Position numbers and translations under genes: made by a program. The notes below the pieces were generated by a model. That model did no database searches and was not told where the DNA came from. It was given only the letters and a program-made list of their open reading frames with translations. A stretch of DNA of 52,176 bases, filler included, from Perkinsus olseni (taxonomy: Eukaryota), in assembly GCA_013115125.1 (NCBI GenBank). It is 2 parts of 2 records of this genome, joined end to end, with 100 filler letters (N's around TTAATTAATTAA, not from the genome) between each part and the next. Parts side by side here need not be neighbours in the genome. Positions count along the whole stretch, not along the records: positions 1 to 26,055 come from JABANN010000489.1; positions 26,156 to 52,176 come from JABANN010000490.1. One strand, written 5' to 3'. How positions within the stretch are numbered: position 1 is the first letter of the stretch; the number at the start of each line of letters is the position of its first letter. This document shows, piece after piece, positions 1,754 to 34,554 of this stretch.

Positions 1754-3699
1754 TCAACTCGAGCCACGTGCTCTGATGCCGCTCAATGATAAAGGTCCTT
1801 TAAGCGTCGTTACCAGCTGCCACATGGCCTCGTGGCCTTTTTTATCATCGTACATCGTAAGTGAACTGGCGGTAGCAGGCGCGACGATGATCATTAAATG
1901 ATCATCATTTCCCTCACCGTGTTGTGTGCTCACCTGCCACTAAGGGCATCTGTGCGTCGGTCGGGGAGGCTAGATGTTATGTCGATAATTCGGAACTTCC
2001 GAATCGGGAGGAACACTAGTTCCTTAATCCTTATTTTTTCACTTGGATCAATACGAGTAGAGTTCGAAGAGTATCCCGCCTGGGGCAGTTACTGGTGCGC
2101 CAATCACACAGTGTAATTAGCTGACAAGATCGTTGGCTTCATCAACGGTCGAATGAGTCTCTTTCGAGACTCAGGCTGAGCCGAAGGGATCGGAAACGAG
2201 GCTGAAGAAGAAGGCTGAAGTCCCACGTGATTCAGCGAGGTCAGAAAGAGATCCGTAGAGATCATGTTTTGGATAGAAAAACATTAGTCACAGAAGTTCA
2301 GTGCTACACAGGGTAGTATCCGACGTGCGGCAAATTTTAAGCTCGAAGGAGCTGGGGTCGCCAGCTGGAGCAATAGCATTTTCCGACCTTTTTCGGCGTG
2401 CGTCTTGCTTGTCGTGTTCCCTCAAAATTCGGCCTTCAAAAGATTCCTCGTTATTAAGGAACTACCAAAGTTGTTAACGAAGTTGAGAAATACCCTTTAG
2501 ACTATTATTTTCAGTCCTTCGCACCTCCCCGGGGATTCCCTTGCAGAAGCACGCTGCTGAGTGCTGAAGTGCCTTACTGATCGCACTCCGGGAGCCAATT
2601 GAAGTGCTTAGATTTCCGAGTACAGAAAATCTGCCTTCCTGAGCTGGGATGAAAACCACGCATTAAAGTGCGCAGACAGATTCGAGGTTTTTGCCGATCT
2701 CGGAGCTTCTGTTACTCGGAAGTTCCGAGTGAGGTCTTTGTGATGTATCTACACAAGCCTTGTCCCTTTCTACTTGAGCTGTCTGTCTCTGTGTGTCTTT
2801 CGCTGTTGCTAACATTAGTATCCAGCCATCCTATTGAGTTCCTCGAGTACAGTACAGTCTTTGATCGAAATGGTAAGGTTCTCGACTACCGCGTTCGGAA
2901 GTAGCGGCTCCTCCTGACGGCGTCCGGGCCACCTGGTCATTCAACTGCACTCAACCTGGTCGTAGAGTCTCGACTTGCACGGTGAATGATAATTGTGCTG
3001 AACCAGACGCTACTGATTCCAAGTACGACAATATTTCAAAATCCTGTTGCTAGTAGTAGCAGCTTCACGACGAGGCAGTTAACAGAGTGATGGCAGCCTG
3101 TACACGGTCTTGCAATTCTTCGCGGGTCTGTATCTTCTCGAGGCTGTCCAAGAAGTTAGACAGACTCTCGACGTCGGATGCTTCACCTCGTCTACGGGAG
3201 AATACCTAATTACGATATGTAGTTAGGCGGAGCGAAGAAAATTTTGTGCGAAATTTTGTCTAAATTACTCAGACTCCTCCAGAGTTTCAAGTCCTCACGC
3301 GCGCGCTCGAGACTGCCTGTGTCGGTCGGCGTGTTGAACACCTTACATGTTGAACGGCAGCCAGAATGGCTCCGAGCGCCCGTCTATTCTCAGAAGTCCC
3401 CGACTCCCTCCCTGCCAAAGCCGCTTTACATTCACGCAGCGTTTGCAGTGTCGACGATTCGTTCTGAGGAAGGACACTCACCTCTGGCAAGCGGCGTGGA
3501 GCAGAGAATCGCTAAGGCAGCAAGTTGACGAGATTAGGATATCTTGTCGTAAGGGTCTGTCGTCTCACTAGTGGTAGTTGCCTTACTAGTCCTTACTACA
3601 TCATCGACCATGCGCGATTATTACAATCGGGAGCTGTACGAGTGTACAGAGATCATTGCAATCACGGATCTAGCACTTCCCTAGGGCGGCTATTATTGA

Positions 3700-6146
3700 G
3701 TGTTCTGTTCCCTTAATAAAGTCTGCACACTCACCAGACAGCTGAGGTGCCAGGAGGCCTCCCCTTGAGCGTCCAACTCAGCAATCTGCGTTCTGATCCG
3801 CTCCGCCACGCTATCAACTGATCCTCGCCTGATCAATAACGACAAATAAAATGCAAGCTGGGCTATCTCACATACCACTCCATCGCGAAATCATCTGCTC
3901 CTTCATGGCCGCTGACGCTATTACGTACTTGCCGAGGCGGCCGACCACCCACCGCTTTTGGAGACATCGACATCGGGACTGAGAACAACAGCAATCCCGA
4001 AGGCCCCCTCCAAGAAAACCTACCCACGCCGCCCTCGGACAACCTCCGACTCACAGCCGGGGTCCTTCTAACCTCATCACAGCTGCTTCGTCGGGCTCGC
4101 TTTCGCCCGCCCGCCTTCGGGTACTCGAGCGTTGTGGTCAACACCCTTGTGGGGTACGAGGGCCGGGAGAGGAGGCTGAGGTTACGGCGTCCCCGATGTT
4201 TACACAAAGCATGCATTACTCAGTCTTTGACACTGTAGTAGTCGCTGACGACATCCGGTCTCGACCCAGGATACGAGTTGTGGGAGTTATGGTATGGTCG
4301 AGCGAAACTGACAACGTATCGATTCCTTGGGATGCATATCGAGCGAGGAACTTCTTGTCAATCAAAACAGTCCTGCTCGTCCCGTCGCCCATATGCTCTC
4401 AAGAGGTCTATTCGTAATGCCATCGTCCAGTTTATGAACTGGGAGCGGAGGCAGTCCTGTTCGACGCGCTCTTCATGATGTGAAGAAACTCCACCGGCAC
4501 TCGAGCTCCAGTACTTCCATCACATACTACAGCAATGGATCCGGCACCCCCACCCCCAGCCCCAGTACCACCTCGCAGCCGCTTCGCGTTATCTACTGGG
4601 GAGGTTATTGCGTGATGGTTCGTGGAGGAGGACGGCGGCGGCACCAAGAGCAGGCCCGAGGTCCCTTTGGACTCGGCCGCCTTGCTGTTATGGCAAAAGT
4701 CGATTCGGGCGAAAATCACCTGCCGGGAGTACTGCTGGAGGGGCGATCTAACGGAGGCGCACTTCGGCCAGCCAATCGATCAACAGCTTCCTCGCCGCCC
4801 TCACTTCTTGACGGCTGCCGTACTCGGGCCTGGTATAGTTCAGCTGGTCACAATACTGTCTTACCATTCAAGAGGCCGCCGGATCTATCCCCAGGGCCTC
4901 CATTCTCGCCATTACTTGAGCTCATCCAGTTCAATGCAGTCCAACCTAACCTGCTCCTTGCAAGTGACATCATTCAAGAACAACTCCTTCTTCCGCATCG
5001 AGTCCCGCAGACCCCCACTGCCCTGACACCACCACACGAGTTATGTTTCTTCTCGGGTGAAATCCCGCGGCGTAACCCTCTAGCTGCGCTTGGACTCGCC
5101 CTATGATGAGCCTTCCCCAACATCACAACAGCCACCACGACTTTCAGCGCTCCCGACTGATCGCCCATCCCCAGCAGCTCATCATGCTCTATCAAGCCGA
5201 TGTCTACGTGTACAGCCGCCCTATAAATCCCACGGTTTTCGTCAATTTTCATACCAAATTTCGGCCAGAACTTTCTCCAAGAGGACCAAGAAAATTCGCG
5301 ACAGCCGGCATGCTTTCGAGATGCCCGCCACCCTGAAATCTGCATCACGGAAGACCGGTGGAAGGGTGATCTATCAGCTGCCACAAAGCGTTACAAATCC
5401 CTTCTAACAATCAATTATCAGAGTGCGAGAAAGGATGAAGCTGCTTAGGCCACGCACCGCAAACCGACCTACCCCGCTGTCCAGGGACTCCTTACTCTCC
5501 GCCAGAAGTTCGTTGAGTGTTGGTACGATTGAATTTCTTATAATAGATAAAGTTGACAATATCTGATAAAACGCCATCCGTGGGATTCGAACCCGGAACC
5601 TACCCTACTTGAGGGTGTTTCGAGAAACTCCTGCATTTTGCCTCCACTGCATCGATCTGCGTTGTTGTTATCGGCGATGATAAATCAGCGCTCGGTGTAT
5701 CTGTCGATACAGTCGCCGAGATTTTCGGGTTTTTCCCGATTTTTCCGGAAATTTCTGCAAATTTGCCAATCGCACACTCTGATGGTTCCTCTAGCCAACG
5801 AGCCACGACAACGCCCGACCTTTGATGGTGATGGACGACGGCCAGCTCCTCCGTACACCCGTCGTGTCACCACCCACTGGCCGGCCGTATCCGAGGGCCG
5901 CCGACGGGAGTGTCCTCTTCCGCAAAGTTCGCACACAGTGTGTCGGAACCTATGGCAGACTGCTATGAGAGAGGTCCCCGGTTCGAATCCCAGCAGGACC
6001 TTTTCTTCCGAGTACACAGACTCTTCTGTATCGTCAATTCTCCTCTTCCGTGAGGAGCTCCTCTCGCTATTCCCTCCCGGAGTAACATCAGACGAAGACG
6101 AGGGGCGGTGGAGCAGGCCGCTCAAACGACGGAATAAAGAGAACAT
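3700..6146 (-). CDS. Multi-exon hypothetical protein; boundaries approximate
   Basis: ATG at 6146 (MFSLFRRLSGLLH...). Plausible GT-AG introns 5960-5999 and 5563-5608; the latter joins HPQ|ILSTLSIIRN in frame. No recognisable domain; 3' end uncertain. Confidence 0.35.
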
Positions 6147-33046: not shown

Positions 33047-34554
33047 GTGAGTGAGGTACATTCGCGTCGAGTTAGTTTAATTTTATCTTCTAAAAAGGAA
33101 TGTCCCCCCCCTCCCCGCAACCGCCGCAGCTCCACCGTCCCCGACAACACCGACAATGGCGGCCTCCCGACGCCGCCTTCGGCCTCAGATCCACCCGCAA
33201 CACCAGTCTCCGACCTGCCCCTTCCGCCAGATGACGTGGCGGCAAGCTCAGCCGGCCCCGCCGCTCCCCCCGACGTCTCGACGGTCCTTCTCAGCAGCCA
33301 ACTTGGCTCCTCCGGTCCGCACGATCCAGCTGCCGTGGTTCAAGACGCCCCCAGCTTGGTCCCAGACGCTCCTCGGAGCACGAGCCCCACAGCACCGTGC
33401 CAGGACGGTCCCGGCAACCCCAGCTCAGCGAACGCGACCCCCCTCTCCGTCGGCGTGAATCAAGAACTGGTCTACCTCGCCGCCGATCTGGAGCCCGGCG
33501 CCGCTGGACCGGTACTTGCGGTCCTCGTGCAGAACGGCATCAACAGCCAGGAGGCCCTAACCTCCGTCGCCGGCGACTTATCCCTCAGATCCGCTATCGC
33601 TGAGGAGCTGACTTTGAGAGGCCGGGTAGTCTACAGCATCATGTGCAACAGAGCGCTAGCCGAGAAGGAGGCCAAGAAGGAGACCAAGGAGCTCAACGCC
33701 GACGACATGACCAGAATGCTAACGGATTTTCAGGCCCTACACGGTTCGACACCCCCGCCCCCTCTGGTGACGACGAAACCGAGCATCATTCAGAAGATGA
33801 AGAGGCCGGATCAGGGTGTGTGTATGGACCTCAACGAGTTCCTTCCCAGGAGAGAAGCCCCGTCACCGTTGTCCCCCGAAGACTCCCGCTCCTTCAAGTT
33901 GACAAGCTCCGGACAACTGATCGCTTCGGGCGGCGAGAAACGTAAGCTTTCCGGTTTTACGGAGCTGTCGGTCGCTCTCTTCCGGTGGGGCGTCACCTAC
34001 TCTGTAGTGCATCCCCCCGTGATCGGCGGCTCCCCCTCTGACGTCGGTCTAAGCCTGTGCGACGTGTTGGCCTATTGGCGACGATTGGTCGACTTCCTTC
34101 CCGCCATTGGCGCTCCCGCCATCATCGATTACGACGCCAAATACCGCTCCGCCATCGCCCAGCTGGTAACCACCAAGACCCACTCGGTGTCCCATATGTT
34201 GTGCGAGGACGTCCTTCCCACAATTATGTCGGCGGCTTTGGCAAGAGCAACGGTGGTGTCCAGTCGTCCTTCTCAGCAGCAGATCACCTCTCCCCAGTCG
34301 ACTCCGACCAACAGTTCTCCCCCTCCCACGGAGTCTCCCAGAGACCGTCTATGTCGCCATTTCCTGCGTGGGGAGTCCCCACTGGGGACTGCAGGTTCGG
34401 CGACTCCTGTCGGTTCAGCCACTCGGTGAATGGTTCCGGCCGTCAACCTCAGCGTGCAACACCGTATGGTCGTCCCAGTCAGGGTCGCAACCATGTTAGC
34501 GGAGATCCTACGCCGTCCTCATCTACAGGTAACAGCGCTGGCTCGCGAGGGTGA
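33047..34554 (+). pseudogene. Gag-like ORF1 with a C-terminal CCCH zinc finger, frameshifted by a 14-bp insertion
   Basis: Removing 34375-34388 restores C-x7-C-x5-C-x3-H (CRHFLRGDCRFGDSCRFSH) and the frame to the stop at 34554. Confidence 0.75.

Follow-up and report, generated by a model that had tools for sequence, protein, structure and literature searches.

What process could leave the same 22-bp arrangement of a single octamer at many places in one genome? The question is raised by a stretch of 52,176 nt from the shellfish parasite Perkinsus olseni, which joins parts of two records of assembly GCA_013115125.1 and is called the window here; positions count along this whole stretch. In the window, an octamer X recurs as its first seven bases, its complete reverse complement, and its last seven bases, an arrangement that we call a scar. 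We consider it probable that these 22-mers were left behind by the excision of a cut-and-paste DNA transposon, most likely of the hAT superfamily, which would make 8-bp target-site duplications (TSDs) and leave hairpin-capped flanks, the hairpins having annealed to each other through the TSD copies.

A 22-bp scar specific to one target length

The whole window was scanned with the rule X[1-7]+revcomp(X)+X[2-8] at a target length k of 8, and with the same rule generalised to k=3-13. Exact matches for k=3 to 13 numbered 207, 20, 2, 0, 0, 9, 0, 0, 0, 0, and 0, that is, nine 22-mers at k=8, with k=6, 7, and 9-13 empty. By our arithmetic, about 2e-4 exact 22-mers, each with 14 fixed positions, would be expected by chance in 52 kb. 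A scan over k had been proposed in an earlier note on this DNA, and at the scale of the window it produced a sharp peak at k=8 with no broad spread of sizes, while shuffled sequence gave 0-2 matches. The four sites that the note had called exact (27623, 28315, 28352, and 34368) fit the rule letter for letter, and its two near matches were as described, the one at 1989 with one mismatch and the one at 28093 with one base missing. Five of the nine exact sites, at 1889, 6769, 22052, 27984, and 44296, were absent from it.

Allowing up to two mismatches at k=8 returned 9 exact, 12 one-mismatch, and 7 two-mismatch sites. Five first-order Markov shuffles searched in the same way gave 0, 2, 0, 0, and 0 matches, all with two mismatches; given this background of 0-2, some of the two-mismatch sites may be chance matches. 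At k=9 the window had no match even when two mismatches were tolerated. Together with the site that lacks one base, the canonical sites total 29, a density of about one per 2 kb, and their mismatches are spread over all three copies of X. One of the 12 one-mismatch sites, at 27751, becomes exact when a long terminal repeat (LTR) element is removed in silico, which yields a tenth exact copy and leaves 11 one-mismatch sites.

We also used a general hairpin model in which X[1-7] is followed by a bases of a left hairpin, b bases of a right hairpin, and X[2-8], with spacers (a+b) of 0-26. Only the spacer of 8 was enriched, with nine matches against none in five shuffles; spacers of 4-7 and 9-26 gave none, and those of 0-3 were inseparable from a high background of tandem and trinucleotide repeats. 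When a two-centre scan with one mismatch and a free middle was run, 17 of 21 matches had a spacer of 8. Two of the other four were convincing variants on a recognisable TSD (28436-28464 and 29952-29988).

Anatomy of the palindromes and target preference

For X = x1..x8, with primes marking complementary bases, the scar reads x1..x7, then x8' x7'..x2' x1', then x2..x8. It can be read as two single-centre palindromes that overlap, one centred on the complement of x8 and the other on that of x1, and one base is lost from each TSD copy. The pattern, its size specificity, and the complemented centres are properties of the window as it stands. A core test with 12 constraints (x2-x7 present three times in the correct orientations) selected 11 segments, nine of which had both centres complemented. 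None of the 11 carried an uncomplemented x8 or x1 at a centre, and no mirror forms were found among them; the two exceptions were the LTR-split site and a site with a point change.

Palindromes of this kind were in excess beyond the canonical register. Single-centre palindromes with arms of at least 6 nt numbered 54, against 6-16 in shuffles, and abutting palindrome pairs numbered 14, against none. With arms of at least 7 nt, 45 palindromes had a one-base centre and three had no centre (even). Two long palindromes were also recorded, at 19607-19647 (perfect 19-nt arms, 3-nt centre) and at 27911-27957 (23-nt arms, 91% complementary, 1-nt centre). Each may be what is left of a hairpin on one side, the TSD of the partner side having passed beyond recognition.

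The targets lean towards nTnnnnAn, and this lean is real but weak: 8 of 28 targets fitted the pattern where about 1.7 were expected, and position 2 was T in 11 of these targets while position 7 was A in 13 (our count).

The plain octamer as the ancestral state

Two internal controls were available, and both upheld what had been claimed for them. The first is a pair of sister LTRs, 26991-27144 and 27584-27751, which differ by exactly one 14-bp insert and three substitutions; the 5' LTR carries plain X at the position where the 3' LTR has the scar at 27623. The second is a CCCH finger broken by the scar at 34368. Deleting 14 bp at 34375 joins two broken frames into a sequence containing LCRHFLRGDCRFGDSCRFSH, a C-x7-C-x5-C-x3-H finger, and the frame downstream of the scar matches zf-CCCH (Pfam). 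Further support came from two relatives. Protein P0004 of P. olseni, encoded in another record, is 98% identical and has the uninterrupted LCRHFLRGDCRFGDSCRFSH finger, and in a relative from P. chesapeaki (P0005) the finger is likewise uninterrupted, with the sequence LCRHFLRGECRFGDACRFSH. The net effect of a scar is thus the addition of 14 bp to a plain octamer, and plain X is the ancestral state.

The LTR insertion also orders the scars in time. The scar with X=CATAGGCG is older than the LTR insertion, since it is exact once the LTR element and its ATAG duplication are taken out, whereas the scar at 27623 is younger than the element, since the sister 5' LTR has plain X. With one scar before and one after the same insertion, the process must have acted repeatedly over time. 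This relative dating and the range from exact to two-mismatch copies show that activity extended over a long period.

The contrast between an empty and a scarred site was present between paralogous or allelic copies (the LTR pair; P0004 and P0005), and no filled site was seen among them. Contigs of two other isolates, about 5% divergent, showed no 14-bp gap among the 12 of 73 indel rows listed; 28157-29490, in the hot zone of Table 1, had no cover in them, and there were no usable rows at the scar sites, so that this comparison speaks neither for nor against the reading.

The element that carries the 27623 scar (26992-27751) is small and TRIM-like. Its LTRs measure 154 and 168 bp, end in TG...CA, and enclose about 440 bp, and a 4-bp duplication, ATAG, accompanies it. 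In the two other isolates its depth exceeds that of single-copy sequence by more than 10x and its borders show many loose ends, and for these two reasons we regard it as a member of a repeated family. The CCCH-finger open reading frame (ORF) lies in an LTR retrotransposon at 32551-38433, which has near-identical LTR segments (168 nt, 99%), a weak RVT_1 match, and several frames without a Pfam match. This retrotransposon is absent from the locus in two divergent isolates, where position 32911 or 32935 is joined to 38432. Part of its 5' end (92 nt) is repeated at 42301-42392 with 86% identity. A metagenome scan with the reverse-transcriptase frame found no relative.

A putative route through annealed hairpins

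Zhou et al. (2004) reportedly placed the hAT nick on the strand with the 5' end of the element, one base inside the flank, the 3'-OH of the flank then attacking the other strand at the element boundary. That hAT elements form flank hairpins is also stated in passages of PMC5499845. From these premises, the 22-mer can be derived on paper. Insertion would duplicate the octamer X. On excision, each flank strand would receive a nick one base within the TSD and be linked to its opposite strand, giving a left flank hairpin x1..x7-x8'-x7'..x1' and, on the bottom strand, a right flank hairpin x8'..x2'-x1-x2..x8. Opening of the hairpins would follow, either by a cut 8 nt or more from the tip, on the strand that leads away from it, or by a nick near the tip and fold-back resynthesis. 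The resulting 3' tails would be x8'..x1'(...), that is rc(X), on the left and x1..x8(...), that is X, on the bottom strand at the right. Since the TSD is identical in the two flanks, the tails would be complementary over 8 nt; they would anneal over exactly this length, surplus tail would be trimmed, and two 7-nt gaps would be filled. The end product would always be X[1-7]+rc(X)+X[2-8], with a net gain of 14 bp, and its uniformity would follow because the annealed product is independent of the point at which the hairpin is opened.

The earlier suggestion of hAT-type excision through flank hairpins is supported by the 8-bp peak, the loss of one base from each TSD copy, the complemented centres, and the weak nTnnnnAn bias. 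As for its companion, the annealing of opened hairpins, the observed 22-mer is indeed the annealed register of X and rc(X) tails; the pathway itself is one that we infer, and the hAT superfamily, the hairpin chemistry, the distant opening, and the annealing-type joining (similar to microhomology joining or single-strand annealing) should be taken as probable parts of it.

Rare variants bear on the opening step. Their arms measure 7-18 nt and are joined through an overlap of 1-5 nt or through filler, and those with arms of 8-18 nt support a distant opening of the hairpins. The three pairs of abutting palindromes at 28470..28618, whose outer flanks are unrelated, are read as hairpin-to-hairpin joins without TSD homology. 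Speculatively, long pairs with unrelated flanks would be expected if the ends shared no TSD, for example when two neighbouring elements were excised together.

A broader claim would be that Perkinsus repairs transposase hairpins almost deterministically, through distant opening and annealing of the inverted TSD with little or no classical end joining, each excision writing the same 14-bp insert. We offer this only tentatively and think it somewhat doubtful.

Search for the responsible element

Several results weigh against an origin in hAT-type excision. In three scans for TSDs with terminal inverted repeats (TIRs), the window yielded no element that combined TIRs with an 8-bp TSD; each scan gave 0 or 1 match, the single match was the LTR/scar itself, and shuffles gave 0-2. 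An inverted-repeat listing of the window likewise contained no TSD-flanked candidate. Pfam searches of 156 open frames of at least 90 aa (12+144) matched Pkinase, Nop, RRM, RVT_1, zf-CCCH, and type III PKS/FAE1 only, with no transposase domain, whether BED finger, DDE domain, or C-terminal hAT dimerisation domain. About 30 scars thus stand against zero resident copies in the window, an uncomfortable ratio. The 11 canonical scars and six odd joints that crowd into 2.2 kb (the hot zone of Table 1) are a further difficulty, since excision alone predicts no clustering unless local hopping or a permissive intergenic region is assumed in addition. The nTnnnnAn bias is weak. Finally, the statement that there is only one product holds for spacers of at least 4, and classical hAT footprints of 1-3 bases are uncountable over the background. 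The superfamily is accordingly a tentative assignment, read from the scars alone.

Alternative origins

The same process might have been driven by an element of another superfamily, either a Mutator-like element (MULE) or a Merlin element, which we regard as unlikely even with no hAT gene among the window frames. Merlin and IS1595-like elements have TIRs that start with GG, and we know of no report of hairpin chemistry for Merlin. MULEs form flank hairpins, as shown for Muta1, and can make 8-bp TSDs according to excerpts of PMC5499845, and passages of PMC8101967 record two preserved Merlin-related ORFs in P. marinus, without recognisable TIRs or TSDs. The same passages give Merlin a TSD of 8-9 bp, so that the length of 8 in the window is compatible, and describe no hairpin chemistry. 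However, TSD length varies in both groups (8-10 bp in MULEs, 8-9 bp in Merlin), whereas k=9 and k=10 are empty in the window, and the T2/A7 bias is the hAT target pattern. In addition, Muta1 with TSDs is excised precisely in yeast in about 90% of cases (parts of PMC5225508 and PMC5499845), while the window scars are imprecise by definition. MULEs and Merlin are possible sources but fit less well than hAT, given that only k=8 is populated and that the target bias is hAT-like.

A different proposal keeps the transposon and changes the repair. The transposase complex or a dedicated nuclease would cut the hairpins at a fixed distance, at the TSD border, and the ends would then be joined bluntly or after fill-in. 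The overwhelming dominance of the canonical product (17 of 21 matches at spacer 8) is what such a ruler would give. Even so, this reading is quite improbable. Non-canonical joints have arms of 7, 8, 9, 11, 12, and 18 nt, and such variation in the opening distance argues against a ruler-like cut; the perfect register of both centres and the shared 7-nt middle are explained by annealing and not by a fixed cut. Moreover, purified hAT, Transib, and Muta1 transposases leave hairpins unopened, as described in passages of PMC5499845.

Scars of this general form could also arise without a transposon, through replication template switching or fold-back priming at small breaks (quasi-palindrome mutation). 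Direct-inverted-direct structures are known from template switching, in the portions of the literature consulted, and both the lack of a resident element in the 52 kb and the concentration of scars in one intergenic zone would suit it. Template switching has no 8-bp ruler, however, and only k=8 occurs; nor does it predict the loss of one base per copy with complemented centres or the T2/A7 bias. We therefore give it very little probability and retain transposon excision followed by hairpin annealing as the preferred explanation. A sequencing or assembly artefact, such as chimeric hairpin reads, has next to no probability even in a draft assembly with N gaps (26056-26155), because scar copies have decayed by point mutation and a 499-nt contig from another study, spanning 33968-34466, carries the 34368 scar with zero differences, and, in addition, one scar was split by a later LTR insertion and another is present in only one of two LTRs.

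Comparison with known footprints and repair products

For Ac/Ds, as far as excerpts of PMC5873905 go, it is established that the footprints are palindromic and derive from hairpins, that the joints show microhomology, and that arms can be as long as 20 nt. In those excerpts, the hAT system Ac/Ds, followed in plants, Saccharomyces cerevisiae, and Candida albicans, makes 8-bp TSDs and leaves footprints centred on the complement of the base adjoining the element, both as in the window; microhomology is present at most joints, and palindrome arms reach 20 nt in yeast. The Ac/Ds footprints are diverse, with 28 types among 128 events in Candida and arms of at least 3 nt in only 47% in yeast (same excerpts of PMC5873905), whereas in the window every exact information-rich scar (spacers of at least 4) is the same product, which includes the whole TSD as an inverted copy. 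Furthermore, the Ac/Ds footprints are products of reporter assays, and the window scars have accumulated naturally in a genome. Hermes resembles the window in its 8-bp TSD and its nTnnnnAn preference (passages of PMC10368747). It differs in that the window has no hAT transposase, BED finger, or TIR, and that membership would be judged by the footprints themselves.

Ascot-1, a Ds-like element of Ascobolus immersus (Colot et al., 1998), is said to be a hAT-like microbial element whose footprints were interpreted through hairpins, and the title of the report reportedly stresses their extensive diversity. By that title, the Ascot-1 footprints are diverse, in contrast to the uniform scars of the window.

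Two repair systems offer partial parallels. P nucleotides at V(D)J coding joints are palindromic additions that result from off-centre opening of a covalently closed hairpin, as would be the case here. Of the known hairpin openers, Artemis cuts the apex itself or its immediate vicinity and Pso2 favours a site 2 nt 3' of it, which gives additions of a few nucleotides (passages of PMC3299998), whereas arms in the window measure 7-18 nt. Set against openers that act so near the apex, such long arms suggest that another activity opens the hairpins or that resynthesis takes place; a clip of the Mre11-Rad50/Sae2 type would be a candidate opener. In microhomology-mediated end joining and single-strand annealing, complementary 3' tails anneal, flaps are trimmed, and gaps are filled in, as in the proposed route. 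The difference is that here the 8-nt homology would be made by unfolding two hairpins of the same TSD and would not be a pre-existing direct repeat, and that 14 bp would be added with no deletion.

The 22-bp rule was undescribed in the literature that we found, which comprised work on Ac/Ds, Muta1, and Hermes besides unrelated papers. The same product may nevertheless be one of several footprints in the yeast studies (Weil & Kunze 2000; Yu et al. 2004; Lazarow et al. 2012) or in that on Ascot-1. Literature searches on Perkinsus transposable elements and end joining returned nothing on hAT, footprints, or repair genes. What differs here is the single dominant product, the natural record in an alveolate, and the relative chronology given by nested, split, and inserted scars.

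Distribution of the scars

The scars are spread across the window but are concentrated in the hot zone, which holds 11 canonical scars, the long imperfect odd palindrome at 27911-27957, and all six abutting-palindrome pairs that fall outside the 7-base canonical register (Table 1).

Table 1. Positions of canonical scars, variants, and the zone in which they concentrate.
Feature	Position	X	Context or structure
Exact scar	1889..1910	GATCATTT	Rule scan
Exact scar	6769..6790	AGAATAAC	336 bp upstream of tRNA-Gln (7126-7197)
Exact scar	22052..22073	GTAGTGCC	Rule scan
Exact scar split by LTR element	26987..27772	CATAGGCG	LTR element 26992-27751 and duplication ATAG removed in silico
Exact scar	27623..27644	AGAAGCTA	In 3' LTR of small LTR element
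Exact scar	27984..28005	TGTGGTTG	Nested within right arm of older odd palindrome with 12-nt arms (27969-27993)
Exact scar	28315..28336	TGTATACT	Rule scan
Exact scar	28352..28373	CCCATGCA	Rule scan
Exact scar	34368..34389	GTGGGGAC	Frameshifts CCCH-finger ORF of LTR retrotransposon at 32.5-38.4 kb
Exact scar	44296..44317	TCCGCGAC	127 bp from tRNA-Pro (44444-44516)
One-mismatch scars	77..98; starts 454, 1989, 18226, 19514, 26445, 28408, 28816, 29040, 29900, 42138		22 bp each
One-base-deleted scar	28093..28113	CTAAGCAC	
Two-mismatch candidates	20728..20749; starts 25371, 26300, 28222, 28652, 29381, 38757		
Non-canonical scar	28436..28464	TCATCGA(C/T)	Arms of 8 and 7 nt; 2-nt overlap replaces full 8-nt register
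Non-canonical scar	29952..29988	ATTGAGCG	Arms of 11 and 8 nt, 2 filler bases; in annotated C-terminal coding part of gene 29889-31376 (-)
Three abutting single-centre palindrome pairs	28470..28618		Centres 28477/28488, 28527/28554 (arms 18, 9), 28598/28611; outer flanks unrelated
Hot zone	27752..29988		Between LTR element and 3' end of neighbouring gene

What the scars would record

Footprints of hAT elements are usually mixed and cannot be recognised without a known donor site. If excision in Perkinsus indeed leaves one information-rich dominant product, past excisions could be read, counted, mapped, and dated against LTR insertions from a single genome, which would provide a rare direct measure of the history of excision rather than of insertion. 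Were the window typical, with about one scar per 2 kb, there would be tens of thousands of scars genome-wide, a countable fossil record of excisions that would build hairpin-forming intergenic sequence, alter gene ends, and inactivate other mobile elements. The scars would also be a signature of the repair of hairpin-capped breaks in an alveolate parasite, with a bearing on the outcomes of nuclease-based editing there. In addition, they would explain 14-bp frameshifts and odd palindromes in Perkinsus annotation, such as the interrupted ORF of the CCCH finger and, in the gene at 29889-31376, a C-terminus derived from scars.

Neighbouring genes, elements, and motifs

The gene at 29889-31376 (-) is annotated as a hypothetical protein in P. 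olseni with a 596-aa model. Its last approximately 45 residues traverse two scars, and its C-terminus is unlike that of the P. chesapeaki counterpart. Its neighbours by language model are bacterial sulfotransferases (score 0.94, a lead only). In atlas comparisons, the 496-aa frame gave a sulfotransferase-like lead, and the RRM frame had mixed protist and algal neighbours.

Only two intact tRNA genes lie in the window, Gln at 7126-7197 and Pro at 44444-44516. Fragments resembling a tRNA T-arm (GGTTCGAxCC) occur in both orientations at 5581-5601, 5969-5994, 7848-7873, 14823-14842, 16177-16206, 16418-16459, 16552-16579, and 16721-16756, some of them inside the kinase-gene region. Perkinsus marinus has hundreds of tRNA genes and tRNA-targeting Dada transposons (passages of PMC3706591), and the fragments may be debris related to these.

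A motif of about 20 nt, GCACGCnTCrACCTAAGAT(A), has nine copies over 9 kb, at 6239, 9190, 9250, 9339, 9923, and 10974 (+) and at 12001, 12134, and 15210 (-). The motif cluster at 9.2-12.2 kb was considered as a set of transposon ends and rejected, as it does not align as termini. A 418-bp segment at 41878-42297, skipped in one isolate, was also considered as an element and has no TIRs.

The join of the two parts consists of two runs of 44 N (26056-26099 and 26112-26155) with 12 bases between them. Over 39190-41287 and 44884-45864, contigs of two runs that bear the label of another organism matched at 100% and skipped eight GT..AG introns (45-105 bp) in the Nop-domain gene; given that the introns are skipped at full identity, these contigs are spliced transcripts. 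Expression extends to the minus-strand gene that resembles type III polyketide synthase/FAE1.

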